DNA of 64,000 bases from Methanothermococcus sp. Ax23 (GCF_049075655.1 NZ_CP157522.1:1216001-1280000); one strand, 5' to 3'; counted from the first letter of the stretch, positions 1 through 64,000 are shown. Notes: generated by a model not told the origin, from the sequence alone. Numbers and translations: made by a program.

Positions 1-124
1 TTTAAAATGTTTGTTTTTTGGAGTGGAGGATTAATTAATATAAACAATAATAAATGAGAAAGAAAGAAAAAATAAAAAAAGAAAAGAAAAAGAAGAAAAA
101 GGAAAAATAATTAAAAAACAAAAT

Positions 125-469
125 TTAGAATGTGATGACTTTATCACTTTCTTTTGTAAATGCAACTAAATCATGCATTGTAGCCAGTTGCACACCATCT
201 ACTAAATCCTCTTCACTTAAACCTCTCGCCTTACTGCATGGACCGCATGCTTTTACAACTGCCCCAGCTTCAATGCAGTTTTTTAAATATTCCAAATAGT
301 TTGGAACTTCTGCTGGATTTTGAGATGTTTTTGCAACATAGACGCCATCTTCAAGGAGGAATATATTAATATCAATACCTTCTAAGAGTGATGTTAAAGC
401 AAATCTAAGGGCGGAATATGCCCTTTCCTGCCCGTATGGCGCTGTTGTGATTATTACCGTGAATTTCAA
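125..469 (-). CDS. DsrE/DsrF-family sulfur relay protein
   Basis: 114 aa; APYG motif, FLLEDGV, CGPC..ARG motif; GGTGA RBS before a TTG start; downstream of tusA. Confidence 0.85.
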   Translation of the reverse strand: MKFTVIITTAPYGQERAYSALRFALTSLLEGIDINIFLLEDGVYVAKTSQNPAEVPNYLEYLKNCIEAGAVVKACGPCSKARGLSEEDLVDGVQLATMHDLVAFTKESDKVITF

Positions 470-493
470 AATATCACCTTATTTTATAATTAT

Positions 494-709
494 TTACTTT
501 TTTATTACAATTTTAAATCCACTTTCAGTTTCTTCGGCAGATACAACAGTATGACCATGTTCTTCAACAAATCTTGTAATATTTTCAAGTGCTGGTTTAT
601 AGTCCCCTATTACTGTTAATTCCTCTCCATCACCCATTGAATCAAGAGCTTTTTTTGTTTTCAATACTGGGATTGGACATACTGTTCCACTAACGTCGAG
701 CTCCATCAT
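494..709 (-). CDS. tusA: TusA/SirA-family sulfur carrier protein
   Basis: 71 aa with the LDVSGTVCPIP (CPxP) signature. Confidence 0.9.
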   Translation of the reverse strand: MMELDVSGTVCPIPVLKTKKALDSMGDGEELTVIGDYKPALENITRFVEEHGHTVVSAEETESGFKIVIKK

Positions 710-1117
710 ATCACCATAATTATTAGATTTCTTAATAATAACTTAAAACATTATTATTCTATATAAAACTAAAACGTATTTAATGGAATATTATGCATTA
801 GTTTATTATATAAATATTTTCATTAACTAATTTAATATATAACCAATTATTAATTAATTTAATAGTTCTAAATGTCGGTAGTTTTATATATATTTGTAAA
901 TACAATTATATAACAAACTGCTGAGAATTATGATAAATTGAATGAAAACCGAAATTTTTCTTACCTTACCTTTAACTTAGTTAAGGCAATTTTTTTACTG
1001 TGGGATACCGCTACATGGCGATAAAATTTCTTCATTTTGTTTATCGAGAAAAATTCTCAAAGGGAGTTTAATCTTTTTATCGGAGTAGATATAGAAATAA
1101 ATACATATGTGATTCTT

Positions 1118-1564
1118 ATGAAACTTTACTACAAAAGAGGCCAAATTTCTATTGATGCAGTATTGGCAATACTTTTTATGTTATTACTGACTTCATTAGT
1201 TAGCTACAATGTGTTTAATAGCTTAAATGGAATTAGACATTCGGAAATTGCCGAGAGGGGGCATTCAATACTTGATGTTTTTGAAAATTATGCTTTAATT
1301 GCATATTCAAAAAATGTTAATATGTATATGACCTTTAAACCAATTGGAGATATTAATTTCACAATATATTTTTCAAATAAAAAAATAAGCGTTAATGATA
1401 CTATGAATATACTATTTAAACCTGAATATGATGAAAATGGCACATATATAAATATAACTGGGGAGAATTGGGGGTATAATTCATTTAACTTGCCCCAAAA
1501 TATTGTAAATATATCATTTGGGGATTTTTACGTCTGTAAAAATCTTACAGTTAGGATTAAATAA
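1118..1564 (+). CDS. Class III signal peptide (pilin-like) protein
   Basis: Start moved to ATG 1118 (GTGAT RBS); KRG|QISID followed by a hydrophobic helix, typical of Methanococcales type IV pilin-like proteins. Confidence 0.75.
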   Translation: MKLYYKRGQISIDAVLAILFMLLLTSLVSYNVFNSLNGIRHSEIAERGHSILDVFENYALIAYSKNVNMYMTFKPIGDINFTIYFSNKKISVNDTMNILFKPEYDENGTYINITGENWGYNSFNLPQNIVNISFGDFYVCKNLTVRIK

Positions 1565-1673
1565 CAAGGTTTTCTCTTTTTTAATATTGTTATAATTAAC
1601 ACATACATATTATATATCAAATTATGTTATATTATAATTATTTATAATTTTAACAGTATTTGAGGAACATATT

Positions 1674-3557
1674 ATGACGTTGGCAAAGTTGAAGTCAAAA
1701 AAGGGTTATATATTCACCTACGAGGCCATAGTAGTTGCTATTATATTTGTTATAGTCTTTTATGTAGGCCATTTTGCAATTACTCATAATATTTTAACAG
1801 TTCATGAAGAAAAAAGAAATATCGAATCATTTGAAAAAGCCAACCTAATAACTGATGTATTATATAAACAACATGAGCTCCCCTCTAATTCATATATTCC
1901 AGATTATAAAAAATTTCTAGATAAAATAAAAGAAAGGTATTATACCTCAGAGAGCAAAATTCCAGGAACATTTGACCCATTTGCACAGGCTAATTTAAAT
2001 TATGCATATAACGACAGTTGGATGTATGAAATAAATATATCAAATCCTAATAACTATGATTTAACAGATTATCAAGTTTTAATTACATTGACCCCGTCAA
2101 ATTTCAACTTTGACTTTTCGCCAGATGGGAAAAATATAAGTTTTTGGGAAAACGACAGCGGGACAATTACTGAAATTCCCTATTGGATTGAAACTTGGGA
2201 ATATAATCAAAAAGCAAGGATCTGGATAAAAGTAAATAAAATTCCTAAAAATAGTAGTGTTATGGTTTATTTAAAAAGGAATCAAATTGGAAATCCGACA
2301 ATAGAGGATAATGGAAATGAGGTATTTATATTCTTCGACAATTTTGAGGATGGAAATTTATGGGATAAATGGGAGATTGTAGTAGGTAATCAAAGCGATT
2401 GGGAGCTCACCCAAGATAACACCTTGCCGTTTTATAATAATAATTCAGGAATCAATTATGTTGCTCATTTAAAACCCAGTAGTGTGGAATATAGAAGTAT
2501 AATATCAAAAAATCCATTAAATGTTAATGATGGCGATAAATATATCCTTGAAGCCGTTGTTAAGGGACATACCGGAGTAGTTGGCGGAAGTGCAGATAGT
2601 CCCGATACGATGGTCGGATTTTATTCGGATAAAAACGCAAATTATTTTTATAATTCATTTACCGGTGATTATCAGCTTTTTGCAATATGTTATAATTATG
2701 ACGAAGATGACGAGCTATCAAATATATTTACAAAAGATAATATATGGTATGAAGAAAAATTCATATTAGAACAAAATGATAGTCCAAAGTATAGAGTCTG
2801 TAATTCATCTATCTGGGAATTCTTTAATGGACACTATGGGGACCCAAATCCAAATGATAATACAAATTCAATGCTCAATACATATTGTATGGTTACAGAA
2901 AATCCTGGAAATAGTAAGTATATTCTTTTAGGAACTGGTCAAGGTTCCCATAGTGAAGAATATTGGTTTGATAATATTAAAGTAAGAAAATATGCCCCAA
3001 AGGTATCGGTTTCTGTAAGTGAAAATATTGTGAGCTCTACAATTTTGGAATCTACAATATCATATAATTTTGCAAATGTTCCAAATGTATCTTTAACAAA
3101 TGTAAATCTGATTTCGGTAAATTATTCAGTTATTTACTCGGATAATGACTATGTGAAAACAAGAAATCTACTAGTTCCAATAAAAACTTGGAGATATTCC
3201 AACAACAAAATAGCATCTGAAAATATATCCCAGGGTGAAATTTTATATTTTGCCGCCAGGAGACCTTCAACGCTAGTTTATATTAACGCTTCTTCAACAG
3301 AGCCAACGGATGCACTGTTTTTAGTTAATGGAGTTCCATTTAAAATGTATCTGAACAGCACTCCAAAAATTACCGGATTTGGAAAAGTCATAAACACACA
3401 TAATTGGGAATATTACGAACCTAATGAGATAAAATTATTAAATGTATCAAACAATGCATTAATAACCCTGAATATTACATATAATCAACCTTCTACAATT
3501 TATGTATTAAAATTAAAACCTGAAAATATATCATGTGTTGTTGAATTAAAGAATTAG
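1674..3557 (+). CDS. DUF2341-domain pilin-like/adhesin protein
   Basis: KKG|YIFTYE plus hydrophobic helix; I.ISNPN..L.DYQV, IPYWIE.W, IWIKV, VF.FFDNFE and FDNIKVRKY motifs of DUF2341. Confidence 0.8.
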   Translation: MTLAKLKSKKGYIFTYEAIVVAIIFVIVFYVGHFAITHNILTVHEEKRNIESFEKANLITDVLYKQHELPSNSYIPDYKKFLDKIKERYYTSESKIPGTFDPFAQANLNYAYNDSWMYEINISNPNNYDLTDYQVLITLTPSNFNFDFSPDGKNISFWENDSGTITEIPYWIETWEYNQKARIWIKVNKIPKNSSVMVYLKRNQIGNPTIEDNGNEVFIFFDNFEDGNLWDKWEIVVGNQSDWELTQDNTLPFYNNNSGINYVAHLKPSSVEYRSIISKNPLNVNDGDKYILEAVVKGHTGVVGGSADSPDTMVGFYSDKNANYFYNSFTGDYQLFAICYNYDEDDELSNIFTKDNIWYEEKFILEQNDSPKYRVCNSSIWEFFNGHYGDPNPNDNTNSMLNTYCMVTENPGNSKYILLGTGQGSHSEEYWFDNIKVRKYAPKVSVSVSENIVSSTILESTISYNFANVPNVSLTNVNLISVNYSVIYSDNDYVKTRNLLVPIKTWRYSNNKIASENISQGEILYFAARRPSTLVYINASSTEPTDALFLVNGVPFKMYLNSTPKITGFGKVINTHNWEYYEPNEIKLLNVSNNALITLNITYNQPSTIYVLKLKPENISCVVELKN

Positions 3558-3567
3558 GGGATATATT

Positions 3568-4107
3568 ATGATATTTGATAGTGATATATTAATTGCAGTT
3601 ATTATTATTATCGTGGGCATGGGGTTCTTTACATCTTCGATGGTAGAGCATACAAACAACTATGCAGACGCTGTAAAAACAAATATATTATATGATAAAG
3701 TAGTTTATCAACTAAAATCCCTAATTTCGGATGGGACTTTGGAAACTGCTGTTTTATTGCTAAATACTAACAACTCAGACATTGCAAAGAGTGTTTTAAA
3801 AAACAAGATAGGGCTTAAAAATTATGAATTAAAAATTGGAAATTATCCCATTATCCCACCACAAGGCGATTTAAATAGCACTAAAACTATTATGGTATCA
3901 GCCACCATACTAATGAATAGAACAGAAGGATGGTATGGAATTTACGGAAACGATGATGAATTACATATAACAAATAAATATTTTATAAGCGAAAATGAGA
4001 CGTATAACTACTTAAATACATATTATAACAGTTATCCGTATAAAAAAGCCATATATTATTTTAATTCAAGTAATCCTATAAATATCACACTAATTTATGG
4101 TGATTAA
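3568..4107 (+). CDS. Minor pilin-like membrane-anchored protein
   Basis: N-terminal hydrophobic helix; lies in the operon between the two DUF2341 genes. Confidence 0.6.
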   Translation: MIFDSDILIAVIIIIVGMGFFTSSMVEHTNNYADAVKTNILYDKVVYQLKSLISDGTLETAVLLLNTNNSDIAKSVLKNKIGLKNYELKIGNYPIIPPQGDLNSTKTIMVSATILMNRTEGWYGIYGNDDELHITNKYFISENETYNYLNTYYNSYPYKKAIYYFNSSNPINITLIYGD

Positions 4108-6000
4108 ATGTATGCATCTCAAAGTATGATTATATTGGTTTTACTGTTGTTCTTAACTGGAACATTGTTATACAACACCATCGATATTCAAAAACAGCAG
4201 ATATTAAATGAGATGAAGGCATCTTCTGTTGATTTAAAATCTACGGCAATAGAACATGTAGTTTCTTCATCCATTTCTGTGGTATTTAACAAGGCATTGA
4301 ATGATGCAGAACTGAGAGTTATAAGACTATATAATGAAAATCCCAACAATCCCAATGAAGCATTTTTTAAAAACACTACGGAAGTTTTAGAATTTCTAAA
4401 AAATGATACTGTTAATATAACAAGCAATAATTATTTAGCAAATGCAAGTGAATATTATAAAAATCAAGGATATAATTTTTCATATAAATTCAACATAACA
4501 AACATAACCATGGTAGATGGATTTACATTTAAGATAGATTATATTTTTGAATATAACTTATCAAGTGGTGGAACTGCAAATAAATCAAAGTGTATAAATT
4601 CCTCCCAATATATAACTGTAAAAACAGTTTTAGATGCTTACCATTACATAAAACCAACCTATGTCGGAAGTATAAATATTTCAAATCCGAACGATAAATA
4701 TTTAAATGATTTTCAAGTTAAAGTTGTTTTAAACAATAGCAATTTCAATTTTTCGCTGGAACCAAATGGAACTGGTTTAAGATTCTATGATGAGAATAGG
4801 AACTATGTTCCATATTGGGTAGAATATTGGAATTATTCAAACGATAATATAGATAATGATAAGGCAATTATTTGGCTAAAAGTTCCACAGTTAAAAGCTA
4901 ATGCAAATACAACGATATATATGATATCCACATACCCAAAAATATCAGAAAGTAAGGGGGATTTAGTATTTGAACTATTTGACGGCTTTGAATATAATGA
5001 TTCAATCTACTCTAAATGGAATGTATTATATGGGGCTTGGGATTACAGCAACAATGATAATCCACTTTATAATCCACTATATAATAGACAGATAATTGAT
5101 TGTAAAGGAGCTCCGCCAGTTGCAAGAATGATTTCAAACGATAATATAAGTTTAAATAATTATATTATTGAAGTGGATGCAAAAGGAAATAATGATTATG
5201 AATATCCTATTGGGCGGGGTCGGCAGCAGCGGGTTTCTTGGCCTGCCCCAAATATAATGGTGGGATATTTTGCAAATCCTCAGTATTATGGAGAAACCAC
5301 AACTCATCCAGATGCCTATTATACATTGGATTTAGGCGGGAGGTGCGATGAGTCAGGCAATCCTGCACTTTGGTCTGATGGTAATGATTTATATTGGATG
5401 AATGGAGGGAAATGGGATTGGGATATATCTGAGTGGGTAGATTATAATTATATAGATTTTAATGGAACTGACATGTGTAATGAATATCCAATTAGTTACT
5501 ATACCATCCATAGAACCAATATTACATATAACGGAACTGTATCACCACAAAAAAACACATGGTATCATATAAAAATCCTTATCACTGGAACAACAGTTAA
5601 AGGAGCATACTCTAATTTAAGTGATTATCTACAAAATAATGAAAATAATTGGATGATTAGTGAAAATATAAATAACCCATACGGAAGTTATTTTGAACTT
5701 GGAACATCAATGGGATTCCACGATTATACTCAAAATGTATATTTTGATAATTTCAGAGTAAGAAAATACGCTCCAATGGAACCAACGGCAACAGCATACA
5801 AAAACATGGTTAGAAAAACGGGAATTATATATATTTCCCCAAATAGGGATTATGGAACTCATTATGGGGGCGAAGAAAGTTATAACCCCTACTTTGTAGA
5901 AGATACTTCAAATATATATCCTTCCATCATAGACATGCTCGCTGGAAAAGATACAAAAGAATGGAAATATGGATATAGTATAAAATTAGAAGGTTATTAA
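4108..6000 (+). CDS. DUF2341-domain membrane-anchored protein
   Basis: N-terminal TM; INISNPN..LNDFQV, VPYWVEYW, IWLKVP, LFDGFE and FDNFRVRKY motifs; abuts the upstream stop. Confidence 0.8.
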   Translation: MYASQSMIILVLLLFLTGTLLYNTIDIQKQQILNEMKASSVDLKSTAIEHVVSSSISVVFNKALNDAELRVIRLYNENPNNPNEAFFKNTTEVLEFLKNDTVNITSNNYLANASEYYKNQGYNFSYKFNITNITMVDGFTFKIDYIFEYNLSSGGTANKSKCINSSQYITVKTVLDAYHYIKPTYVGSINISNPNDKYLNDFQVKVVLNNSNFNFSLEPNGTGLRFYDENRNYVPYWVEYWNYSNDNIDNDKAIIWLKVPQLKANANTTIYMISTYPKISESKGDLVFELFDGFEYNDSIYSKWNVLYGAWDYSNNDNPLYNPLYNRQIIDCKGAPPVARMISNDNISLNNYIIEVDAKGNNDYEYPIGRGRQQRVSWPAPNIMVGYFANPQYYGETTTHPDAYYTLDLGGRCDESGNPALWSDGNDLYWMNGGKWDWDISEWVDYNYIDFNGTDMCNEYPISYYTIHRTNITYNGTVSPQKNTWYHIKILITGTTVKGAYSNLSDYLQNNENNWMISENINNPYGSYFELGTSMGFHDYTQNVYFDNFRVRKYAPMEPTATAYKNMVRKTGIIYISPNRDYGTHYGGEESYNPYFVEDTSNIYPSIIDMLAGKDTKEWKYGYSIKLEGY

Positions 6001-16926: not shown

Positions 16927-17014
16927 TTTATCACCATTAATTTAATCCATTTATTTTTTAAATTTTTCAATATATGTTAAGGTTTTGATGTCATTTCCTC
17001 GGAGCTCCTATTTA

Positions 17015-17356
17015 TCACTTGTCGAGCTCTTTTAATATCTTTTCAATGGTTTCCTTTGTTTCTGGAATATCTTCTTTAATGACTTTCCAGACTAATTCTA
17101 AATTAACATTAGAATATGAATGAATCAATTTATCCCGCATACCTGCAATGTCCCTCCAAGGCACTTCTGGATAGTTTTCCCTTAAATCATCAGGTATATT
17201 TTTCACCGCCTCGCCTATTATCTCAATACATCTACATACTGAATACTGAGTCTTTTTATCCCTTAAAAATTCTTTGTAATCCATATTTTCTACAAATTCT
17301 TCTGCCAAGCCCATATTTTCGATAATATCAATTAGATATATATCAACTTTCTTCAA
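17015..17356 (-). CDS. HEPN (DUF86) RNase toxin, HepT-like
   Basis: IEIIGEA and RDKLIHSY (RX4HXY) motifs. Confidence 0.92.
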
Positions 17357-17645
17357 TAGGAATCTCCTCCTTTAAGATTGTTTCTTTTAATTCCTTCCTA
17401 ATATCATTTTTTAACACCAAATCTACTTTAATACTTAACAAATCAGATAGATAATTTTCTAAATTCACAAATTTTAATAAACTAGGTAATTCATAAAATT
17501 CAACTAAAATATCAATATCTGAAGTTTCTTTCTGCTCCCCTCTTGCATAACTTCCAAATATTCCAATAGTTTTAACTTTGTATTTTTCTTTTAGTTCCTT
17601 TTTGTGTTCTAAAAGTATCTTTTTTATTTCGTTTAAGGTTTTCAT
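17343..17645 (-). CDS. Minimal nucleotidyltransferase antitoxin, MntA-like
   Basis: [16 protein letters not shown]; overlaps the HEPN gene. Confidence 0.92.
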
Positions 17646-17783
17646 ATTATCCCCCTTCGGAGCTCCTTGATATATTATAACCTATACTAATTTTAATTTT
17701 TTATTATATTTTCGATGATGTTATTATTTTTATTTCTTTCTTTTTACATTTATTATTTCCTTTTTAATTATAATTATTATTAC

Positions 17784-19153: not shown

Positions 19154-20146
<993 letters not shown>

Positions 20147-20459: not shown

Positions 20460-21839
20460 TTATTGCTTGTTATCTTCTATCTTTTTAAATTTATCACAGG
20501 CATTTTCAGCTGCAAGAGCAAGCGGGTCAATTACCATTGAAACTGGCGGAGCATAGCAGAACTCCATATTTGCCAGTTCATCACAAGTCATATTTTTCAC
20601 AATACCTATGGATACTGCATCCACTCTTTCGGCAACTCTTTCTCCCCCCACAATCTGACATCCTACAATATTTTTGTTCATATCACATATTAATTTAACT
20701 TCTATTAACTTTCCACCTGGATAGTATCTTGCCCTTGTAAGTGCCTTTGACTTTCCAACTACAACTTCAAGTCTGTTTTGATGAGCTCCGAGCTCACTCA
20801 TGCCTGTTCCAGCCATTTCAATATCTCCAATTTTTGATACCATGGCATTTAAAACTGGGTTGAATTTAGCTTCAATACCCACGATATTTTTTCCTGCAAC
20901 TTTACCCTGTCTTACAGCTGTTGTTCCAAATGGTGATAAGGTAATCTGCTTTGTGATTAAATCCACAACTTCCACACAGTCTCCAACTGCGTATATGTTT
21001 GGAATTGAAGTTTGCATTTTTTCATTTACCTTTATAGCCCATCTTCCTATTTCACAACCTGCCTTTTTTGCCAGTTCTATGTTTGGTCTGACACCTGTTG
21101 CCATTATAACCATGTCACACTCGTAGAGCTCCCCATCTATTACCGCACCATTTACCTTACCTTCTTCATCCCCAACAATCTTACCTAATGGTTTTTCAAG
21201 TATAAACTTAATACCAACATCTTCTTCCAAATACTTCATAACAATTTTAGCCATATCTATATCCAGAGCTCTCGGTAATATTTGGGGTGCCATTTCAACA
21301 ACTATTACATCAAGACCGAGCTCCTTCAATGCGTATGCTGTTTCAAGTCCAATTGCCCCAGCGCCTGCAACTATTGCACTTTTTGAATTTTCCGCATACT
21401 CTTTTATCTTTATACCATCTTCAATTGTCCTTAGTTTAAAGACGCCTTTTAAATCCACCCCTTCAATCGGTGGAACAAATGGTGAGCCCCCAGTAGCCAA
21501 AACAAGGTAATCATAAGTTAATTCTATTTCATTGTTTTCTTTATCTTTATATATTATTTTATTATTCTCTGAATCCACATCCAAAACTTCTGACTCTGTG
21601 ATTACATCGATATGCCTATCTTTTTTGTATTCTTCGGGAGTGTGCATTATTATATCTTCAAATGAAGGTATTTCATTACATATTACATAGGGAATAGCAC
21701 ATGGTGAATATGCTATATATTTATCCTTTGTAATCACTACTATTTCCATTTCTTTATTATATCTTCTTATAGTTGAAGCGGTGGTTAATCCTGCGGCTCC
21801 ACTTCCAATTACAACAACTCTCATTTCTTCACCTGACAT
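20460..21839 (-). CDS. NADH oxidase / CoA-disulfide reductase family flavoprotein
   Basis: GSGAAG, YSPCAIPY active Cys, GAGAIGLE, YAVGDC, YAPP. Confidence 0.9.
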   Translation of the reverse strand: MSGEEMRVVVIGSGAAGLTTASTIRRYNKEMEIVVITKDKYIAYSPCAIPYVICNEIPSFEDIIMHTPEEYKKDRHIDVITESEVLDVDSENNKIIYKDKENNEIELTYDYLVLATGGSPFVPPIEGVDLKGVFKLRTIEDGIKIKEYAENSKSAIVAGAGAIGLETAYALKELGLDVIVVEMAPQILPRALDIDMAKIVMKYLEEDVGIKFILEKPLGKIVGDEEGKVNGAVIDGELYECDMVIMATGVRPNIELAKKAGCEIGRWAIKVNEKMQTSIPNIYAVGDCVEVVDLITKQITLSPFGTTAVRQGKVAGKNIVGIEAKFNPVLNAMVSKIGDIEMAGTGMSELGAHQNRLEVVVGKSKALTRARYYPGGKLIEVKLICDMNKNIVGCQIVGGERVAERVDAVSIGIVKNMTCDELANMEFCYAPPVSMVIDPLALAAENACDKFKKIEDNKQ

Positions 21840-30277: not shown

Positions 30278-31765
30278 TTACTCTTTTAAATCAAGTCCCA
30301 TTTTTTCTGCCAGTTTTACAATTATTTCATTATCTGGTATGGCATCTCCTGGAGCTCCTACTATCTTATTTATCTTTTGAGTCTTCCCCTCTGTATTTGT
30401 AAAGGTTCCATCCTTTTCAGCCCAGCATGATGCTGGAAGAACAACATTAGAAAGATTACATGTTTCATTCATTATTATACTTTGAGTAATCAAAAAATCA
30501 AGAGATTTTAATACATCCCCATTACACATTGCGGGATTTTCTCCCATTATGTATAAGCATTTAACATTTTTGATTAATTCAAGTAGTTCGTCCTTATTCA
30601 ATGGTGGAAGTAGTTTCATTGCACCCATTGTGTTGCAATGTTTTAAAACTGGAAGTAATTTACATTTTGTTTTTTCTGAGATACTATAAACCAAATCTAT
30701 ATCTTCTTGGTTTGTCAATTTATTAAATATTATTATGGAGTTCTCATCAAGTTTTTTTAGGATTTCTTCATCCATGTTCTTCAAAAATTCAGAGAAATTG
30801 TTTATTTTTATAAACTTATCAGAATTTAATCTAATAATGTCTTTTTCTTCATAATTTACAGAAACTATTTCAGCCCCATTTTCCTTTGCTTTAATTACCC
30901 TCCTTCCAATTAAAGAACTCTCCCCAAACACATCACTAAGAATTAAAATAAATTTGCTATTTTCAATATCATCAAAAGATGCTATACTCTTATCCAAATC
31001 AATTTTTGGAGAACCACATATGCAAACTCCAATGTTTTTTACGATAAACCGCCGAGAAAGCCAACGATTTTAATCGTTATACAAAACATAGTTTTGTAAA
31101 ATCTCTTACGAGATTGGATGAGAGGCGGACATTATAATTAGTCAGTAGTAAAACATAAATATTTGAAGTTTCATAGTGAATAATGCTACCAGTCCAAGTA
31201 TCTATGGGTAGGGTTAGTAAAAACTCTACCGCTGGTAGTGGTTGGAAGTGCATAGCGTAGCCCTGAACCCATTAATGGGTAGGGGTAGTGGGCTTGGCCA
31301 CCCTTGTAGGGTTAAACCCTGCTAAAATTAGACGAAATCACTTCGTGATTTCGTTGCTCGCTTACTACCGTAAGCGAGAACCCCACGACTTCAGTCGTGG
31401 GAGTAGGTCAGACCAAGTGCATCTGCAAATTTTTTCAAGGCGTAATTGTCTTCATTCGTGCATATTCCAGAACCTATAATACCAATTTCATCTGGTTTGT
31501 AGGACTTTAATTTATTAGATACCAAATTCAGTGCATCATCCCAGCTTGATTCAACAAATTTTCCATTTTTCTTTATTAATGGTGTCTTTAATCTCTTTTC
31601 ATCATTTACAATTTTATAACATTCTCTTCCATTGTTGCAGTTTTTTCCTTCATTTATGGGATGCCTCTTGTTTGGATAGGTTCCTATGACTTTTCCATCT
31701 TTTGTTATTAAATCTACTCCACAACCAACACTGCATCCGGGACATATCGTGTGCATAATCTTCAT
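30278..31765 (-). pseudogene. Short FdhA-like protein (ElpA/FlpA-like), interrupted by an IS605 MITE
   Basis: N-part [17 protein letters not shown] (31412-31765) plus C-part (30278-31042). Removing 31043-31411 restores ...ADALG|VKNIGVCICGSPKID... as a 372-aa ORF. Confidence 0.88.
31043..31411 (+). mobile_element. Non-autonomous IS200/IS605 MITE (369 bp)
   Basis: Inserted after TTTAC with no TSD. First ~90 bp match the left end at 62852; right-end hairpin CCCACGAC-TTCA-GTCGTGGG ends in GGTCAG; 31191-31233 matches tnpB 63467-63509 (36/43). Confidence 0.92.
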
Positions 31766-31828
31766 TGTTTCACCGTCTTTTTCTTTTTTTGGTTTTATAT
31801 TCCGAGCTCCCACTCCCATTATCAATAA

Positions 31829-33729: not shown

Positions 33730-35697
33730 TTAATTGGCAGGGTCCTTAAATGCTCCTTCAATCTGCTTAAATAATTGAATGGTTTTAAAGTGATTCTGTT
33801 CCATAGCACCACTTGGACATCCTGCCACACAGGTTCCACAACCTTTGCACAATGCTGAAATAACCTCTACAACAGATCTTCCATCTTTTTCTACTAATTT
33901 TGGAGCTCCATAAGGACATTGTTTTACACAGATGCCACATCCTCCACAAATGTCCTCATTTACCTCTGCAACTATTGGCTCAACATTGACCTCTCCCTTA
34001 GCCATTGGTATTGCAGCCCTTGATGCTGCTGCTGAACCTTGTGCAACCGATGCTGGAATATCCTTAGGTCCTTGACATGCACCTGCAAGATAAATACCAT
34101 CTGTCGCTGTATCAACAGGTTTGAGTTTTGGGTGAGCTTCCATAAAGAACCCATCTGCTGATTTTGAAATACCCAGAACCTTCTGAACATCATCCATAGA
34201 TGCTGTCGGCACCATACCCACTGAAAGAACAACCATATCATATTCTTTCTCAATTAGTTCTCCAAGTAAGGTTTCTTCTGCTCTTATAATCAGATTTTTA
34301 GTTTCTGGGTCTTCTATAATCTGTGCAGGTCTTCCCCTTATGAAGTTTATGCCGTACTGCCATGCGCTTCTTTCATAGAATTCTTCATATCCCTTAGAGA
34401 ATGCCCTAATATCCATATAGTAAATATCTATCTTTGTATCGGGTTCGTGTTCTATTATCAATTGGGAGTTTTTCATAGCATACATACAGCAGACATTTGA
34501 ACAGTATTTATTCCCCACTTTTGCATCTCTTGAACCAACACACTGAATAAAGGCTATTCTTTTTGGATGCTTCCCATCACTTAGCCTTACAACGTGCCCC
34601 ATTGTTGGACCTGATGCATTTATCAGCCTTTCAAGTTCAAGCCCTGTAATTACATTATCATAAACCCCATAGCCATACTCCTCCTTAATCGATGGGTCGA
34701 ATGGGTCATACCCTATTGCAGTAATTATGCTTCCCACCTCTTCCTCAATAATCTCGGGTTTTTGATTGTAGTCTATTGCATTAGGTCCGCAAACTGTGGA
34801 ACATAATCCACATTCTATACAATGTTCTTTGTCAATTGTGTATTTTGCAGGAACAGCCTGTGGGAATGGTTTATATATTGCCTTTCTTGTTCCAAGCCCC
34901 ATATCAAATTCATTTGGAACTTCAATTGGACATACCTCTGCACACTGACCGCATCCTGTACATTTTGTTTCATCAAGGTATCTTGGCTTTTTTAATATCT
35001 TGACCTTGAAGTTTCCAATGTATCCGCTTACTTCTTTAACCTCTGAATAGGAATAAAGTTTAACATTTGGATGCTTTGCAACATCTACCATTTTTGGAGC
35101 TAAAATACAGATAGAACAGTCGTTTGTTGGAAATGTTTTGTCCAGCTGTGCCATCCTTCCCCCAACAGATGGTGTTTTCTCAACCAATATTGTTTCAAAT
35201 CCCATATCTCCCAAATCCAGTGCCGCCTGAATACCTGAAACACCACCACCAATTACCAGAGCTCTGTTTTTAACACCTACATTAATAAAGTCCAATGGTT
35301 CCAACAATCTTGCCTTTGCAACTCCCATTCTTACTAAATCTTTTGCCTTTTCCGTAGCCTTCTCTGGCTCATGCATATGCACCCAAGAATCATGTTCTCT
35401 TATATTTACAAACTCGAATAAGAAGGGATTTAATCCAGCTTCTTCAACACATCTCCTAAATGTTGGTTCGTGCATTCTTGGAGAACAAGCCGCAACAACA
35501 ACCCTATTTAAATTATACTCTTTAATGTCCTTCTGTATGATTTCCTGCCCCGGGTCTGCACAGAAATATTTGTAATCTCTTGCAACAACAACATTTTTTA
35601 ATGTTTTAGCAAACTCGGCAAGTTCTGGACAATTAACTACTCCGCCAATGTTAATTCCACAATGGCAGACATAAACACCAATTCTTGGTTCTTCCAT
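33730..35697 (-). CDS. hdrA: Heterodisulfide reductase subunit A, cysteine form
   Basis: [35 protein letters not shown]; no in-frame TGA. Confidence 0.96.
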
Positions 35698-51818: not shown

Positions 51819-51827
51819 TATTTCACC

Positions 51828-55479: not shown

Positions 55480-56526
55480 GAGGTTGTCGAAAAATATTAA
55501 ATTATCAATAACATATAATACATGTTATGAAGGGGAATATAAAAAAGAAAATAGAAAAGAAAAAGACCAATCCTAAGACAAAAGGATACTGGAGAATATA
55601 CGACCTTAGATATAAGAAATACGACCTAAGAACTACTTATACGTTGATTTTATCCATTACAAACATGCTGAATCGTCCTTCTACCGAAGGACGAAAGGTT
55701 GGTAGGGTATCTGCCCTACCCTATAATGAATATGTGGTAGTTCTAATATTAAAACATATCTACAAACTAAGTTTAAGGGATTTAGAGACACTCTCAAATA
55801 CATTACATAACAAACATATTGACCATTCCACATACGGTAAAGCATTTAAACGGATGGATAATGAGTTTCTATCCAATTTACTCACTTTTACATATACGAT
55901 TATAGATAATCTACTAACTCAGCCCTCCAACAAACTATATATGGCAGACTCAACAGGAGTTTCCATAAATAGGTTATACTATGAGTGCATTCACGGAGGG
56001 AAACGTACTAAACGATTGGTGCATGATAAATTGCATGTTCTAGCATCATACTATCCAGAACAAGGATATATTCCAATAATCTCCGCCCGTTGGGGCGGAG
56101 GTTATAGTTCCGATAGTGCCAACCTATTGGAAATGGTTAAACAGATTGATTTTTTAGATAATGAATATCTACTGGCTGATGGAGGATATGATTGCTGTGA
56201 ATTGTTTTAATATTTACTACAACACAATATCACTCCAATAGTTAAAACAAAAGAATTCAAGTGGAAGTATCATATTAGCAAAGTTAGAAAAACCATTAAG
56301 AGCATGTTTAACAAGGATTGGTATCGCCTTCGGGGGATAGTAGAATCCATATTTGGAGGGCTGGAGACTAAAAACAGGTTAAAATTAGATGACAGGTTGG
56401 CGGATAGCAGAGATGTAAAAGCACTATTGCTACTGCGATAGTGCATAACGTATTAACACTAATGAGAGTATTAGTATTAACATATGATACTGAATAAAAT
56501 TACAAATTCAATTATTCGACAACCTC
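55480..56526 (+). mobile_element. DDE insertion sequence (IS5/IS4-like), 1047 bp
   Basis: TIR GAGGTTGTCGAA at both ends; 9-bp TSD ATTATTATC (55471-55479 and 56527-56535). Confidence 0.93.
55527..56497 (+). pseudogene. DDE transposase with premature stop
   Basis: ADSTG, KLH, ADGGYD, then TAA at 56208-56210. The same frame continues to YRLRGIVESIFG, with an apparent frameshift before AIVHN. Confidence 0.85.
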
Positions 56527-57962: not shown

Positions 57963-57985
57963 CTATTACACCTCGTTTATAGATT

Positions 57986-58005: not shown

Positions 58006-58122
58006 TTTAAATATATATAATTTACGGTTTTATAATCTACTTTTATAAATAATATATTATTAATAGAATATCATCATTATATTATCAGTATAATAAATAG
58101 AATTAGCATATTTGGTGATTAT

Positions 58123-59421
58123 ATGATAATAGTGGAAAAAACCGATAAGATAAAAGGAAATATCTATGCCCCTCCTTCAAAATCATACACTCATAGGGCA
58201 GTAATATGTGCATCTCTATCTGATGGAATTTCAGAGATAAAGAATCCGTTAAACAGTGCCGACTGTCTTTCATCAGTTCATGGTGCAAGAATGCTCGGAG
58301 CTCACATAAACACCGAAGATGAAAATAAATGGATTGTGGAAGGAAACAATAACAACCCAAAAACTCCTGACAATATAATCGATATTGGGAACAGCGGAAC
58401 AACCCTAAGGATTTTAACAGGGATTTCATCCCAAATACCAAATGGATATGCCGTATTAACAGGAGATGAATCCATAAGAAAAAGACCTATGCAACCGCTA
58501 CTGGATGCCTTAAAACAGCTCGGTATTGAAGCTTTTTCATCAAAAATGGATGGAACTGCCCCAATTATTGTTAAAAGTGGTGAGATAAAAAATAACATTG
58601 TTAAGATAAGGGGCGATATGAGCTCTCAATTCATCACATCATTAATGATGACATTGCCATTTGCCAAAGATGATTCAAAGATAATTTTAACAACTCCTTT
58701 AAAATCTGCACCATATTTGGACATAACAATCGATGTTCTTAGTAAGTTTGGAATAACCGTTAAACCTTTGGAAGAAGAAAATGAAAAAGGATTTTTTATT
58801 GAAGGAAATCAGAAATACAAACCTTGCAACTACACAGTAGAAGGAGACTATTCATCAGCATCATATCTTGTAGCCGCAGGAGTTCTTTTAAATTCAGAAT
58901 TAACTATAAACAATTTATTTAAGGACTCAAAGCAAGGAGATAAGGAAATAATAAACATAGTTAAAGAAATGGGGGCAGATATTGAAGTTAAAAATGATAA
59001 AGTCATAATCAATGGACCCCATAAACTAAAAGGTATAGATATAGATGTAAAAAATATACCTGATTTAGTGCCAACTATTGCGGTGTTAGGATGCTTTGCG
59101 GAAGGTAAAACCACAATATACAATGGAGAGCATGTTAGATTAAAGGAATGCGACCGACTAAATGCCTGTGCAAAAGAATTAACAAAGATGGGGGCAAAAA
59201 TAACTGAAAAACCTGATGGTCTTGTAATTGAAGGTGTCGGAAAATTAAAAGGTGCAGAACTGGAAACATACCACGACCACAGGCTTGTAATGGCTTTCAC
59301 AATTGCTGGAATGATGGCAGAAGGCAAAACAATAATAAAAGGGGAAGATGCCGTTAAAATATCATTCCCAAACTTCGTGGATGTAATGAAGTCAATTGGA
59401 GCAAATATTACACTGTGTTAA
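58123..59421 (+). CDS. aroA: EPSP synthase
   Basis: PSKSYTHRA, GNSGTTLR, SSQF, RLKECDR, DHRLVMA. Confidence 0.97.
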   Translation: MIIVEKTDKIKGNIYAPPSKSYTHRAVICASLSDGISEIKNPLNSADCLSSVHGARMLGAHINTEDENKWIVEGNNNNPKTPDNIIDIGNSGTTLRILTGISSQIPNGYAVLTGDESIRKRPMQPLLDALKQLGIEAFSSKMDGTAPIIVKSGEIKNNIVKIRGDMSSQFITSLMMTLPFAKDDSKIILTTPLKSAPYLDITIDVLSKFGITVKPLEEENEKGFFIEGNQKYKPCNYTVEGDYSSASYLVAAGVLLNSELTINNLFKDSKQGDKEIINIVKEMGADIEVKNDKVIINGPHKLKGIDIDVKNIPDLVPTIAVLGCFAEGKTTIYNGEHVRLKECDRLNACAKELTKMGAKITEKPDGLVIEGVGKLKGAELETYHDHRLVMAFTIAGMMAEGKTIIKGEDAVKISFPNFVDVMKSIGANITLC

Positions 59422-59517
59422 ATACATACATTTATTTTAGTTCGTTTTAATTTTTATTTTATATTCCTTTTACATTCATTGTCTTTAAAATTAAATTAAA
59501 ATTAAAGTAGGGATACG

Positions 59518-60549
59518 ATGAATAAAATAAAAGATTTTTTAAATTATTTAAGTGAAAACAACATAAAGAAAGCCATAGTTTTAAAAAAGGAAAATATAAA
59601 TTATTTTTTAGAAAAATATCCCCCAACATTTTCGGTTTTAGTTTTTGATGCAGAGGAAGATAGGGCAGTTTTGAAAGTTCCAAAACTGGAATATAGGGGA
59701 GCTCTAACATATAAAAACAAATACCTTGATATCGAGTTGTTCGAAAAAATTGAAGAGGTATTTAAGGGATGCGATGGTGTTGAGGATTCCCTTCCTTTAA
59801 AATTTTTGAAATATCTTGATAAGAATTATAAACTAATATCCGACAAAATAAGAGAAATGCGAGCAATAAAAAACGATAGGGAAATCGAACTAATCCAAAA
59901 GGCATCTAAAATAAGCGATAAAGCAGTCGAGTATGCAACAGAGTTTATATTAAATTCAGATAAACCAATTACTGAAAATGAGCTCGCCGCAGAGATTGAG
60001 TATATTATGAAAAAAGAAGGTAGTATAAAACCATCCTTTGACACAATAGCAATTTCAGATAAAAAAACAGCACTACCTCACGGAGCTCCTTCTGATGCAG
60101 TAATTAAAAATATACTTCTGATGGATATTGGGGCAACTTATGAAGGTTATTGCTCAGATATTACAAGAACAGTTATTTTAAATCCAGATGAGAGATATAG
60201 GGATATATACAACATTGTTCATAATGCAAAAAATGAAGCAGAACAGTATCTTAAAGAAGGAATTTCAGTAAAGGAGCTCGACTCAATAGCAAGAAAATCC
60301 ATGGGCAAGTATGAAAAATATTTCATTCACTCCTTAGGTCATGGTGTTGGTGTAGAGGTTCATGAAGAACCATCAGTTTCTTCAAAGGTTAAGGAAGATA
60401 TTATTTTAAAAGAAGGTATGGTAATTACAATAGAACCAGGTATTTATTTAGACGATTTTGGAATAAGAATTGAAGATTTATATGTTGTTAAAAAGAATGG
60501 ATTTAAAAAATTGAGTAATGCAAAAATATTAGACGAAATCACTTTGTGA
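59518..60549 (+). CDS. pepQ: Xaa-Pro dipeptidase (M24)
   Basis: PH, DIG....GY.SDITRT, HSLGHGVG.EVHE, TIEPG, RIED. Confidence 0.9.
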   Translation: MNKIKDFLNYLSENNIKKAIVLKKENINYFLEKYPPTFSVLVFDAEEDRAVLKVPKLEYRGALTYKNKYLDIELFEKIEEVFKGCDGVEDSLPLKFLKYLDKNYKLISDKIREMRAIKNDREIELIQKASKISDKAVEYATEFILNSDKPITENELAAEIEYIMKKEGSIKPSFDTIAISDKKTALPHGAPSDAVIKNILLMDIGATYEGYCSDITRTVILNPDERYRDIYNIVHNAKNEAEQYLKEGISVKELDSIARKSMGKYEKYFIHSLGHGVGVEVHEEPSVSSKVKEDIILKEGMVITIEPGIYLDDFGIRIEDLYVVKKNGFKKLSNAKILDEITL

Positions 60550-60574
60550 TTTCGTTGCTCTTCGCTTCGCTCCG
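60528..60574 (+). repeat. Double-hairpin micro-element (ATTAGACG family)
   Basis: ATTAGACGAAATCACTTTGTGATTTCGTTGCTC...; supplies the pepQ stop. Confidence 0.8.
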
Positions 60575-60610
60575 ATTAAATATTAATTTTATTTTTTATT
60601 ATTATTTTTA

Positions 60611-61681
60611 TTATTTATTTTCTATTCCCAATTTAATCATCTCATCAAACAAAAACCTTGCATCATGAGGTCCAGGTCCTGCCTCTGGGTGGTATTGGAC
60701 ACACAATATGTTTTTGTCCTTTATTCTTAAACCTTCAACTGTGTTGTCGTTTAAGTTAATATGGAATACTTCTGCATCTTTTGGCATGGACTCGCTTTTT
60801 GTGGCAAATCCATGATTTTGAGATGTAATATATACTCTATCTTCCTCTAAATTCTTTACTGGCTGGTTTCCTCCTCTGTGTCCAAACTTCATTTTGTAAG
60901 TCTCACCGCCAAGTGCAAGGGTGATGATTTGATGACCTAAACAGATTCCTGTAATTGGCACTTTTCCTATTAAGGATTTTACAGTGTCTATTGTTTCCTT
61001 AACAGAGCTCGGGTCTCCTGGACCATTTGATACCATTACAAAATCTGGGTTGTAGCTCAATATTTCATCCGCTGGTGTGTTGTATGGCACCTGAATTACT
61101 GTGCAGTTTCTCTCCACTAAACAATCTATTATGCTTGTTTTAACACCACAGTCAATTAATACGCATTTTGCCACTTCATCTTCTGCTTCGTGGATTACAG
61201 TTTCTTTTGTTGATACTTCTGGCACTAAATCAATTTCAGATAAATCCTTATGACTTTTTGCCATCTCAATGTATTTTTCAATTTCTGAATCATCAATAGG
61301 TTCTGATGAGGTTTTTAGGAGAGCTCTTACAACACCTTTTGACCTTATCCTTCTTGTAATAAATCTTGTATCTATGTTGCATATCCCGGGAACATCGTAT
61401 TTTTTTAAGAATTCATCTAATTCGTTTCCAGTTAGGTCTTTTATAACAAATCCTTCCGCTTTTATACCATCTGATTCAAACCATGATTCACTAACTCCGT
61501 AGTTTCCTTCCAATGGGTATGTCATTGTAATAATCTGCCCTTTATAAGAAGGGTCTGTGAGTATTTCCACATAACCGGTCATACTTGTGTTAAATACCAG
61601 TTCTCCTAAAACTTCCTTTTCTGCTCCAAATCCTTTTCCTTTTAAAACTGTTCCATCTTCTAAAACTAAAATTCCATACAA
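60611..61681 (-). CDS. carA: Carbamoyl-phosphate synthase small subunit
   Basis: [31 protein letters not shown]. Confidence 0.97.
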
Positions 61682-61796
61682 TTTCTCACCAATTATATTT
61701 AATAATTTATATCAACTTTATATTTTCATAGTGTTTATAATTATAAATTACATGATGATTATATCATAATTATATCATAACATATTTAATATTAAT

Positions 61797-62725
61797 TAGT
61801 GTGGGTCATATTACACTCTAACCTCTAATACCTTCATATAAGGATAACCTCTGGTAATGAGATTATATAGTGCTAAAACCTGTGCAGAAACTACTGCACA
61901 GAGACAGAATACTTTTTTACGAATATAACCTTTGATATTAATCCAAAACTTATTCATAAATCGGTTCTTTAATATTGAATTGGTGTGCTCTATTTTAACT
62001 CTTATCTTAGAAACTTCCGAAGGAAGTTTCTTTTTATTTTTCCTACCCAATCTCCGTGGATTATGTGCTGTTATTAGTTCATTTTTGTATAATTCTATCG
62101 CTTTTTTTTAAATCTTTTGAATCATAGCCTGCATCTGCACAGGACTTTTTGGTAGGTACTAATAATTTATCAGCTACTTTACAATCGTGAGTATTTGCTG
62201 TGGTAAATTCTGCTCTTAATGGTATTCCTAACTTATCTACTGCTAAATGTAATTTAAAGCCTTTAAACATTCCTACACTGTTATATCCTATCTTTCCCTC
62301 AATATCTGTTTCGTCTTTTATTGGAGTGCTATCGTATATTGACCATTCAGGATTATTTAGTTCAATATATTTATCACCTAATAAAGTAATTATTGCATGC
62401 AATTCTTCATCTAGGGATTTTTTCCATCTATCGATGGTTCTTCTACCAGGGCAGGATTTAAATCCTAATGCAGTTAAAATCTGTGGATTATTTTGTAAGT
62501 GTAATACTAACGCTCTATTTGAATGTATGCCTTTTAAAAAGGCATACACTAATAGTTTAAGCCTCAACTCTAAATTATATCCTTTTCTCCCTACCTTTCT
62601 TCGTTTAGGGATTCGGTCAATTAAATCTGATGTAATTATCTCATTTACCACTTCCTCAGCCTTCATATTATCGTCTTTTTTATAATATTATATTTAGTAT
62701 AGGTTATATATTTTGACCCATACTA
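61797..62725 (-). mobile_element. DDE insertion sequence (DUF772 + DDE_Tnp_1 type), 929 bp, with long direct repeats
   Basis: TIR TAGT(G/A)TGGGTCA; identical 31-bp flanking direct repeats at 61766-61796 and 62726-62756. Confidence 0.92.
61811..62666 (-). pseudogene. Transposase split by a frameshift at an A8 run
   Basis: DSTP, GFKLHL, HD, ADAGYDS in the first ORF; R..IEH in the second; removing one A at 62102-62109 joins them. Confidence 0.85.
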
Positions 62726-62851
62726 ATAATTATATCATAACATATTTAATATTAATCTTTTATTTTATTTAGAGTTAATAATTTAAATAATTTAAACATT
62801 ATACGAGATTTAATATAAAAGAAAATGATGAATATATAAAAAGAATTTTAC

Positions 62852-64000
62852 GATAAACCGCCGGGAAAGCCAACGACTTCAGTCGTTATACAAAACATAG
62901 TTTTGTAAAATCTCTTACGAGATTGGATGAGAGGCGGACATTCTATATTCCACACAATCAAAAATTATCTGTAATTGAATATATAAACTATATTTATAAG
63001 AACTATGGTGAATTCCATGCAAGTAACCAGAGTGCTGACAATAAACCTAACCAGAAGTTTAAATAATGAACAATTAACAATCATAAACCATTTAACCTAC
63101 TCAGCATCAAAACTCTGGAATACATCCAATTATGAAGTAATACTACAAAACATTGAACCAAATAAAATAGATGTTCAAATGAAGGATAACTTCTGGTTTA
63201 AAAACCTACACTCACAATCAGCACAGGCAGTATGTCAAAAACTCTCAATTAGACGAAAACCTTCGGTTTTCGTTGCTCGCTTGCTACGCAAGCGATAGCA
63301 TGGCAAAACTACTTCAAACAGCACACTAAAAGACCACGATACCAACCAAAAGATGGACACTTTCCAGTAAAATGGAAGAAACAAGGTTTCAAAATCATAG
63401 GCAATAAGTTAAGGTTATCCCTATCAAAACAAACTAAAAACTATCTCAAAGAAAAGCATGTTATCAAGTCCAAGTACTTATGGGTAGATTTATCGAAAAC
63501 TCTACCGCTTGATACCACGCAGGTTAAAGAAGTTGAGATAGTTCCGCAGACCATCTATGGGATAACCTACCACATACTTCACTTAATCCATAAGAAACCA
63601 GTAATTCAAGAACCTATCAAAGAAGGTAATATACTAAGTATTGATTTAGGAATTAAGAATTTAGCAACCACAGTAACTAACACGGGCATCAGGCGAAAAC
63701 CTTCGGTTTTCGCTACTCACCAACATCAGTTGGTGAAAGCAGTAATCTATGATGGAAGAAGGTTAATTTCTAAATTCCGATGGTTTGCTAAAAGTAAAGG
63801 AAAAATCCAATCTACCCTAACAAAGCAAGAGTTAAAATATAATAAACGATTATCCCGCTTAACAGTAAGGGAAAAGAATTATACTAAGGATTATCTACAT
63901 AAAATAAGTAAAATGATTATCGATTTTGCAGTGGAAAATAAAGTTTCAAGGATTGTAATCGGCGAGTTAAACAAAGGTATTTCAAATATTAATATTGGTA
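62852..64000 (+). mobile_element. IS200/IS605 family tnpB-only (IS1341-type) element, runs off the window
   Basis: Left end after TTTAC with a subterminal hairpin; tnpB follows directly with no tnpA. Confidence 0.9.
63005..64000 (+). pseudogene. tnpB: TnpB RNA-guided nuclease, frameshifted by a 47-bp insertion
   Basis: KLWNT.NY, LHSQSAQ, RuvC-I SIDLGIKN, DYLHK.S, RuvC-II IVIGEL; insertions at 63248-63294 (frameshift) and 63688-63735 (in frame). Confidence 0.9.

Follow-up and report, generated by a model that had tools for sequence, protein, structure and literature searches.

The uptake signal sequences (USS) of Pasteurellaceae and the DNA uptake sequences (DUS) of Neisseriaceae are non-palindromic words of 9-12 bases that recur at a density of about 1 per kb. 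Their accumulation is described as explicable by molecular drive (PMC2817400, PMC2397512). Cyanobacteria carry a highly iterated palindrome (HIP), HIP1, which is reported to be 15- to 300-fold over-represented and for which Xu et al. proposed selection for a diffuse chromosomal function (PMC5861425); HIP1 is also described as being recognised by DmtA and DmtC (PMC13756078) and as enhancing transformation (bioRxiv 10.1101/2024.09.10.611283; PMC13756078). Here we describe a motif with features of both classes, the palindrome GAGCTC, in the archaeon Methanothermococcus sp. Ax23. It came to attention in a stretch of 64,000 nucleotides (NZ_CP157522.1, positions 1216001-1280000), which as a whole we call the window, through a sequence-only reading that likened the motif to HIP1 and attributed it to an undescribed methylation-coupled repair, recombination, protein-binding or DNA-uptake system. 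Our tentative reading is that GAGCTC is the archaeal counterpart of highly iterated palindromes and uptake sequences, and that it may be held above its neutral frequency by a persistent fixation bias acting at the level of DNA.

The study genome, G000, comprises 1,670,680 bases in two contigs, and the window corresponds to G000:C1:1216001-1280000, with window positions counted from its first letter. Comparisons were made within a set of 40 Methanococcales species genomes, coded by G-numbers, and genes were called crudely as the longest non-overlapping open reading frames (ORFs), giving 1,651 genes that cover 87% of contig C1. The window, whose GC content is 0.29-0.37, contains 86 GAGCTC sites, about 1 per 744 bp across its entire length. 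In 100 dinucleotide-preserving shuffles the expectation was 3.84 (sd 1.69, maximum 10) and none reached 86, which bears out the sequence-only reading's estimate of 80 or more sites against 4-5 expected. The whole genome holds 2,089 copies, or roughly 1 site per 0.8 kb, where Markov models of order 0, 1 and 3 predict 125, 106 and 429, and four of the copies lie on the second contig of 7.7 kb. GAGCTC heads the list of hexamers with at least 100 copies, with a 19.7-fold excess; next come AGCTCC and GGAGCT at about 6-fold, which are pieces of GAGCTC plus a flank, and among the 64 palindromic hexamers the second highest reaches only 1.8-fold. Like HIP1, GAGCTC is a short GC-rich palindrome that occurs about once per gene or kb, within and between ORFs, and its excess of about 17-34-fold compares with 15- to 300-fold for HIP1. 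It differs in being six bases long rather than eight, and in having an AT-rich archaeon as its host.

The excess belongs to the exact word. AGCT is present in 5,049 copies in G000, and when these are sorted by the base on either side, the GAGCTC cell of the NAGCTN table holds 2,085 of them and the remaining 15 cells hold 126-325 each. A quasi-independence estimate for the GAGCTC cell is 493 × 467 / 2,004 ≈ 115, so the enrichment outlives conditioning on AGCT and its flanks with an 18-fold excess; neither GAGCTN nor NAGCTC is enriched beyond exact GAGCTC. The same pattern is seen in G013 (1,048 vs 138-326) and in G012 (112 vs 3-20). Further out, the flanks are little informative: genome-wide, the frequency of G at -1 is 0.38 where the background is 0.16, position -2 disfavours T, and GGAGCTCC is found at 331 of 2,085 sites. 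The sequence-only reading had the sites often extending into longer words, and such extensions do exist in the window (CGGAGCTCC and its complement 3+3 times, CCGAGCTCC and its complement 5+1 times, GGAGCTCC at 18 of the 86 sites), but the genome-wide preference for G at -1 is weak.

These counts also bear on whether the excess could be an artefact, be it a dispersed repeat family, a compositional quirk such as AGCT or dinucleotide bias, or an assembly error, an idea to which we give next to no credence. High-order Markov models do shrink the excess, the order-4 expectation being 1,306 and the ratio 1.6; that expectation, however, is raised by the motif's own copies, since C follows 2,085 of the 2,578 occurrences of GAGCT. 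A dispersed repeat family is ruled out because contexts rarely recur: no extended 18-mer around the 115 intergenic sites recurs more than twice, and across the genome the commonest 10-mer context has only 54 occurrences. Moreover, the same excess is present in four independent genomes.

Nor does the excess depend on the genetic code. When synonymous codons were shuffled within each gene (30 shuffles, every protein and the codon usage of each gene being kept), 193±13 coding sites were expected and 1,963 were observed, so the enrichment survives a model that preserves amino acids and codon usage. Split by frames 0, 1 and 2, the coding sites number 1,106, 631 and 226 against 83, 84 and 27 in the synonymous shuffles, a 7.5-13-fold excess in each, and thus the motif is not confined to one frame. 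The window, where the sequence-only reading had likewise seen several reading frames, is split into 42 sites in frame 0 (GAG CTC), 33 in frame 1 and 9 in frame 2. In frame 0 the motif writes Glu-Leu, and GAG-CTC encodes 1,106 of the 3,985 Glu-Leu dipeptides (28%), where codon usage predicts 68; both GAG and CTC are minor codons in G000. On C1, 123 sites lie outside the crude ORFs, and inter-ORF DNA (203 kb, GC 0.24) has 115 sites where 3.3 are expected, a 34-fold excess. For the window the share outside crude ORFs is two of 86, and of three positions earlier taken as intergenic, 17002 and 17660 are so, whereas 31804 falls within the first codons of a crude ORF and its status depends on the start codon.

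A cause at the level of RNA or translation, in which GAGCUC would be selected in transcripts, for instance as a word recognised by a protein or an RNase, or GAG-CTC preferred as a codon pair, seems to us very improbable. It has in its favour that about 87% of the genome is coding and that a palindrome appears in the transcript of either strand, so that most sites are transcribed, and also that frame 0 makes up the majority of coding sites. Yet a codon-pair effect cannot account for the sites in frames 1 and 2 or in non-coding DNA, all three frames are enriched, and the intergenic excess, at 34-fold, bears no relation to gene starts.

Along resident DNA, GAGCTC sites are placed at random. Spacings are near exponential (mean 797; median 532 vs 553 expected; coefficient of variation 1.09), and counts in 10-kb bins have a variance/mean ratio of 1.04. 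No periodicity was found: the highest periodogram peak was 10.0, below the 95th percentile of 12.1 for random placement. In the range of 10-90 kb, too, none was detected (top power 8.9 vs a random 95th percentile of 10.0) by a test simpler than the published HIP1 one; HIP1 is reported to be periodic, and in this GAGCTC differs from it. Genome-wide, clustering showed no excess over random placement (18 vs 15.7±4.0 and 18 vs 14.4±4.2). Intergenic sites have no favoured distance to gene starts, which rules out a promoter or operator role.

The sole clear departure from random placement lies outside the window at G000:C1:124946-126501, where 12 sites occur in 1.6 kb of AT-rich (GC 0.28), largely non-coding DNA. 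This cluster directly follows the longest site-free island (11 kb), and two of its sites have in common a 27-base context with a TATA-like word. A link with the replication origin is unsupported, the cluster being about 45 kb from a weak GC-skew maximum.

Site density does depend on how long DNA appears to have resided in the genome. Genes with a homolog in G005, an unenriched relative, carry 1.45 sites per kb, and those without one 0.87-0.97 per kb. The longest site-free gaps are mostly low-GC islands whose genes have no homologs or only distant ones; one site-free stretch is a Type III restriction-modification locus. The sequence-only reading had seen no sites inside insertion sequence (IS) elements, and this held up: no window site lies past 61321, and genome-wide the 55 multi-copy ORFs (at least 3 copies at ≥85% identity; 30,243 bp, GC 0.34), one of which is a DDE transposase in the window, have none. 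GAGCTC resembles USS and DUS here, those words also being dense in the core and under-represented in recently acquired DNA, and the likeness extends to a density of about 1 per kb, coding sites in several frames, possible effects on the proteome and a clade-specific motif, although GAGCTC is shorter and palindromic. To our knowledge, sequence-biased DNA uptake has not been described for any archaeon, no search having been aimed at it.

Counting the hexamer across the Methanococcales showed that the trait is clade-specific. Five of the 40 genomes are enriched (G000 with 2,089 sites, G012 with 2,070, G010 with 1,645, G013 with 1,515 and G003 with 1,321), and the remaining 35 have 4-229; within the same nominal genus, four genomes hold 4-16 copies, although two of the four are only 54% and 81% complete. 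Median amino-acid identity to G000 over reciprocal best hits is 89.6% for G012 (69 pairs, 100 kb), 75.4% for G013 (968) and 72.3% for G005 (1,108). In a tree of a single gene, the selenocysteine-type HdrA, with G010 and G012 left out, G000, G003 and G013 group with the unenriched G014 in one supported clade (98/97), and the unenriched genomes that share their nominal genus are divided between two other clades. A single origin of the enrichment is likely on this evidence. HIP1 is similarly lineage-specific, with exceptions among relatives.

Among the unenriched genomes, some avoid the word. G005 has 14 copies of GAGCTC where 165 are expected and 16 of AAGCTT where 471 are expected, and AGCT itself has 535 copies in 1.50 Mb compared with 5,049 in G000, so avoidance there acts at the level of AGCT. 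This pattern points to restriction of an AluI-like kind acting on a lineage that is sister to the enriched clade. Classical restriction-site avoidance concerns the same class of word, 6-bp palindromes of Type II kind, and the four sister genomes with 4-16 copies conform to it; in G000 the sign is opposite. We considered CTGCAG, which is 5-fold up in G005, as an alternate highly iterated palindrome, and dropped it, all TGCA-containing hexamers in that genome being 4-5-fold up.

Other words depart from expectation as well. CTGCAG is strongly avoided in G000 (18 copies vs 130 expected at order 1 or 361 at order 4) and is 3.7-fold up in G013, as it is 5-fold up in G005; GATC-containing hexamers in G000 are at 0.01-0.05 of the synonymous-shuffle expectation, and GTGCAC, GTTAAC, CTTAAG, GTATAC, CTATAG and GTCGAC are about 10-fold down. 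These genomes have a rich and fast-changing restriction history.

Turnover of sites in orthologs was followed at two depths. Within one 100-kb region shared with one close relative, G012, GAGCTC is found in both genomes at 82 of 107 alignable sites. At conserved Glu-Leu dipeptides in that region, 45 of 52 GAGCTC codon pairs are identical, compared with 71 of 141 other codon pairs (Fisher p = 2.6e-6), and by arithmetic from these counts the rate of GAGCTC loss is about 1/5 of the synonymous background. Gains occur too, since 7 of the 141 pairs that are not GAGCTC in G000 are GAGCTC in G012. Between G000 and G013, synonymous positions are near saturation, with identical hexamers at 30-34% of conserved dipeptides. 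These two genomes have 287 of 1,276 sites in common, yet their densities are comparable, and at conserved Glu-Leu G013 uses GAGCTC in 29% of cases if the site is present in G000 and in 13.6% if it is absent there (p = 1.4e-11). The force is still acting, because lineages with saturated synonymous sites keep comparable densities; since the relic of a past event would have decayed, GAGCTC is at a turnover equilibrium in each lineage.

Slow loss of sites could also mean that each of them is weakly beneficial as a place where an abundant protein binds, be it a nucleoid, a chromosome-organising or an epigenetic reader protein. Selection at the level of sites in this sense is the main rival to our reading, and we consider it rather unlikely. 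That sites are conserved beyond synonymous expectation, an argument also put forward for HIP1 (PMC5861425), speaks for it, as do the similar enrichment factors in coding and non-coding DNA and the density kept across deep divergence. Against it stand a placement indistinguishable from Poisson, with no periodicity, positional preference or even spacing (coefficient of variation 1.09), the sister clades that do without the motif or avoid it, and a partial screen that found no clade-specific DNA-binding protein.

We infer a fixation bias because of the combination of exact-word specificity, frame independence, Poisson placement, dependence on residence, clade restriction, and slowed loss with continuing gain. 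The data show a force that acts on the exact hexamer regardless of reading frame or coding status, scatters sites randomly over resident DNA, has operated in all lineages of what is probably one clade but not in sister clades, and slows site loss about 5-fold while new sites keep arising. In the mechanism we envisage, a clade-specific protein may recognise GAGCTC, probably as a homodimer because the word is palindromic, and could give GAGCTC-bearing alleles an advantage in transmission. This might occur by two routes: biased gene conversion among many copies of the chromosome, Methanococcales being highly polyploid, or preferential uptake or recombination of tagged DNA from kin, which is plausible by analogy because HIP1 has recently been linked to transformation. 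Sites would then build up to an equilibrium between mutation and drive, at about 28% of Glu-Leu dipeptides and about 1 per 0.8 kb. Judged on gene content, the process would be independent of a conserved cognate methyltransferase and of T:G repair of the Vsr or Mig type. A bolder possibility, and one we regard as distinctly unlikely, is that GAGCTC is the first archaeal tag of "self" DNA, in which a clade-specific protein, recognising the word without methylation, would bias DNA uptake, recombination or gene conversion between chromosome copies toward tagged DNA, and drive would spread the motif and partly isolate the clade from sister lineages whose restriction targets it.

The methylation-coupled mechanism put forward in the sequence-only reading would have a methylase mark GAGCTC or AGCT and a very-short-patch-like repair convert T:G mismatches in near-cognate words to C:G, pumping the motif up. 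The model for it is Dcm/Vsr at CCWGG in E. coli, which GAGCTC resembles in the excess of a palindrome and, within coding DNA, in the scarcity of its transition neighbours. Against the raw codon expectation GAA-CTC stands at 0.30 and GAG-CTT at 0.31, and against synonymous shuffles GAGCTT stands at 0.45 and GAACTC at 0.64, transversion neighbours being affected less; intergenic neighbours are not depleted (GAACTC/GAGTTC 1.61, AAGCTC/GAGCTT 0.80), on baselines contaminated by the motif itself. The CCWGG skew attributed to Vsr is modest, and the GAGCTC effect, at about 20-fold, is far larger. Repair coupled to methylation could further appeal to the orphan N4-methylcytosine (m4C) AGCT methylases described as persistent in other archaeal orders (PMC10609329) and to the reported co-occurrence of cyanobacterial HIPs with cognate methylases (PMC4390886).

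What the genomes contain argues against it. Four methylase families (PF00145, PF01555, PF02384 and PF02086) were searched in G000, G010, G012, G013 and G005. PF00145, the C5-methyltransferase family, has no match in G000, and among the five genomes searched G013 alone has one. PF01555 has three matches in G000, namely a Type II-like methylase of 300 aa, the mod subunit of a Type III system and a THUMP RNA methylase, none of which tracks GAGCTC; close orthologs of the first were found in G003 (92%) and in five unenriched genomes belonging to the other family (74-77%), and not in G010, G012 or G013. In G010 the only match is one PF01555 gene, 453 aa in length. The matches in G012 are a Dam-like gene, a pair of HsdM genes and one Type IIG-like gene on a plasmid, and those in G013, besides its C5 methylase, are a PF01555 protein of 887 aa, an HsdM and two proteins of Type IIG-like kind. 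No methylase type within these families is therefore common to G000, G010, G012 and G013, which sets GAGCTC apart from HIP1. Vsr was not found in the five genomes, NucS not in any enriched genome, and a short second HhH-GPD paralog, which we take to belong to the family of Mig-type T:G glycosylases, not in G000, G010 or G013, and it is present in many unenriched genomes. Deamination of m4C, moreover, does not give thymine. A search for RE_SacI (PF09566) had no match, with a control that matched in no genome either. On balance we judge methylation-coupled repair improbable: the earlier inference pointed to the right kind of explanation in supposing an undescribed force at the level of DNA, and its methylation-coupled version is without its parts. 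The described methylome of M. aeolicus PL15/Hp, a species that may or may not be among the enriched genomes, lists CTAG, GTNAC, GCACY, CGAG and ACGT and no GAGCTC in the available account (PMC10113651).

An McrBC-like pair at G000:C1:1527725-1531046, identified by eye only, is found in G000 and G013 and has no match in G005. Activity of this pair on R-mC, if it has any, would be hard to reconcile with methylated cytosine in GAGCTC and would count further against methylation-coupled repair.

Several observations weigh against a fixation bias as the explanation. The depletion of transition neighbours is a signature of a mutation- or repair-level bias and not of pure fixation bias, and it persists in coding DNA when the motif's share of the codon pool is removed (GAACTC ~0.63, GAGCTT ~0.46). 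Ordinary selection for a function fits the higher conservation of sites equally well, a methyltransferase of an unrecognised family could still be at work, and the monophyly of the high genomes rests on one gene, with G010 and G012 absent from the tree. For the uptake route, USS and DUS need the bacterial competence machinery, and the bacterial-type ComEC (PF03772) and DprA (PF02481) were not found in G000, G010, G012, G013 or G005, the controls having matched in 10 and 11 genomes; archaeal uptake machinery may be different. Finally, a partial gene-content screen found no GAGCTC-recognising protein. That screen took G000 ORFs without a match in G005 and with a match in 1.2 Mb of G013, leaving out 30% of G013 as well as G003, G010 and G012, and yielded 136 ORFs, of which about 53 were read by eye and 10 scanned in Pfam. 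They include an AlkD-like gene, a Csa3-like gene and an AAA+wHTH cluster and, by eye only, CRISPR-Cas-like genes, the McrBC-like pair and a KAP NTPase. Two candidates were followed across 31 genomes and failed as the factor: a helicase/nuclease operon, which is found in three of the five high genomes and one unenriched genome, and a PLD-like nuclease, which is also in seven unenriched genomes.

An operon at G000:C1:1537329-1542521 encodes a DUF6884 protein, a 772-aa protein, a Cas4-like nuclease and a 420-aa protein, and is 77-84% identical to its G013 counterpart. The Cas4-like nuclease occurs in four of 31 genomes (G000, G010, G013 and G028), and GAGCTC is unusually dense at the beginning of the operon, where 1.5 kb holds 9 sites.

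The motif may also have left its mark on proteins. At aligned positions, the dipeptides that host the site are commoner in G000 than in G005 (Glu-Leu +18%, Ser-Ser +22%, Gly-Ala +15%), and control dipeptides have G000/G005 ratios near one (Asp-Leu 0.99, Glu-Ile 0.97, Lys-Leu 1.04); between G000 and G013 the hosting dipeptides are equal (0.98-1.05). This is consistent with the motif having altered proteins, in a comparison with one unenriched genome that differs in composition in other ways (Glu-Val 0.79). Amino-acid conservation is 0.545 for GAGCTC-coded Glu-Leu and 0.541 for other Glu-Leu, and this near equality lends no support to recent non-synonymous creation of sites.

There are also hints of DNA exchange. 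Eight proteins of G000 reach 95% identity or more with a G013 protein, a level that none reaches with a G005 protein despite similar medians, which hints at preferential exchange among enriched lineages. Two blocks of G000 (G000:C1:285965-303028 and 1516644-1521521) match blocks of G013 (G013:C1:1170618-1186824 and 629004-633552) at up to 99.5% amino-acid identity, against the 75% median, which suggests recent exchange of mobile elements between these two enriched lineages. An element common to both has 0.82 and 0.56 sites per kb. Where G013 has single longer ORFs in the second block, each is matched by several G000 ORFs, which may therefore be broken.

Taken feature by feature, GAGCTC matches highly iterated palindromes in four of six respects and fails on methylase and periodicity. 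The likeness proposed in the sequence-only reading is sustained by its behaviour, namely an exact word that occurs in every frame and between genes, is scarce in islands and IS elements, is clade-specific and, as in HIP1, is conserved beyond neutral expectation. Literature searches on GAGCTC in Methanococc* or archaea and on archaeal highly iterated palindromes returned no description of this enrichment, and the available portions of two surveys of archaeal restriction-modification hold no mention of a GAGCTC excess (PMC10609329, PMC11033074). GAGCTC would be the first archaeal highly iterated palindrome, and one apparently without a methylase.

Why such motifs exist matters beyond this clade. 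The hyper-abundant palindromes of cyanobacteria have puzzled researchers for three decades, and a connection between their mechanism and DNA transfer is only now emerging. An independent archaeal case, on in five genomes and off in 35 and with no conserved methylase, offers a second and simpler system in which to look for the factor, and we expect the factor to be findable because of the sharp contrast between enriched and avoided states among related genomes. The case allows us to ask whether such motifs originate by drive or by selection, whether archaea practise sequence-biased DNA exchange or gene conversion, and whether a motif can reshape proteins, its host dipeptides being 15-22% commoner than in an unenriched relative. 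On the practical side, SacI-type enzymes would cut G000 DNA about every 0.8 kb.

Positions of GAGCTC sites and related features within the 64,000-nucleotide window
Feature	Window position	Strand	Remarks
GAGCTC starts, 1-17k	698, 1875, 2403, 3032, 5108, 6269, 6855, 6884, 8684, 8860, 9648, 11269, 11788, 12052, 12090, 12805, 12862, 13795, 15099, 15159, 15672, 16292, 16813		
GAGCTC starts, 17-31k	17002, 17024, 17660, 18080, 18312, 19539, 19572, 19620, 20783, 20790, 21126, 21266, 21318, 23143, 24239, 24489, 26598, 26781, 27640, 28512, 29135, 29933, 30059, 30352		
GAGCTC starts, 31-48k	31804, 31891, 32635, 32927, 33903, 35259, 37397, 37697, 38062, 38874, 39234, 39261, 40790, 43416, 43952, 44638, 44817, 44974, 45288, 46736, 47500		
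GAGCTC starts, 48-64k	48084, 48927, 52065, 53176, 54177, 54714, 54846, 55118, 56799, 56939, 58298, 58620, 59699, 59980, 60083, 60274, 61005, 61321		
Intergenic GAGCTC	17002..17007		just downstream of HepT-like/nucleotidyltransferase gene pair; context TCGGAGCTCCTA
Intergenic GAGCTC	17660..17665		opposite side of HepT-like/nucleotidyltransferase pair; context TCGGAGCTCCTT
Three sites within 87 bp	19539..19625		
Two sites 7 bp apart, GAGCTCCGAGCTC	20783..20795		inside pyridine-nucleotide disulphide oxidoreductase gene
Site at start of crude ORF 31391-31825	31804..31809	minus (ORF)	ORF molybdopterin oxidoreductase-like; status hinges on true start codon
Multi-copy ORF (6 copies) without GAGCTC	55527..56210	plus	no Pfam family matched
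IS-element copies without GAGCTC	61811..64000	minus (ORF)	DDE transposase ORF 62079-62666; DDE_Tnp_1 and DUF772 matches; families of 5-9 copies

The tandem pair of sites noticed in the sequence-only reading is real and begins at 20783 and 20790, its first member having been placed one base too far, at 20784. At 16999-17668 a HepT-like RNase and a nucleotidyltransferase form a toxin-antitoxin-like pair that is flanked by two GAGCTC sites with a common 11-base context, TCGGAGCTCCT. Elsewhere in the window, a cysteine-type HdrA gene (33730-35697, minus strand) adjoins NiFe-hydrogenase genes and has a match of at least 80% identity in 11 of 30 other genomes searched. A second HdrA paralog, at G000:C1:765993-767942, contains one in-frame TGA, is of the selenocysteine type and is present in almost all genomes searched. 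An HdrA-based search for related loci returned mainly Methanobacteriaceae and only two Methanocaldococcus genomes.

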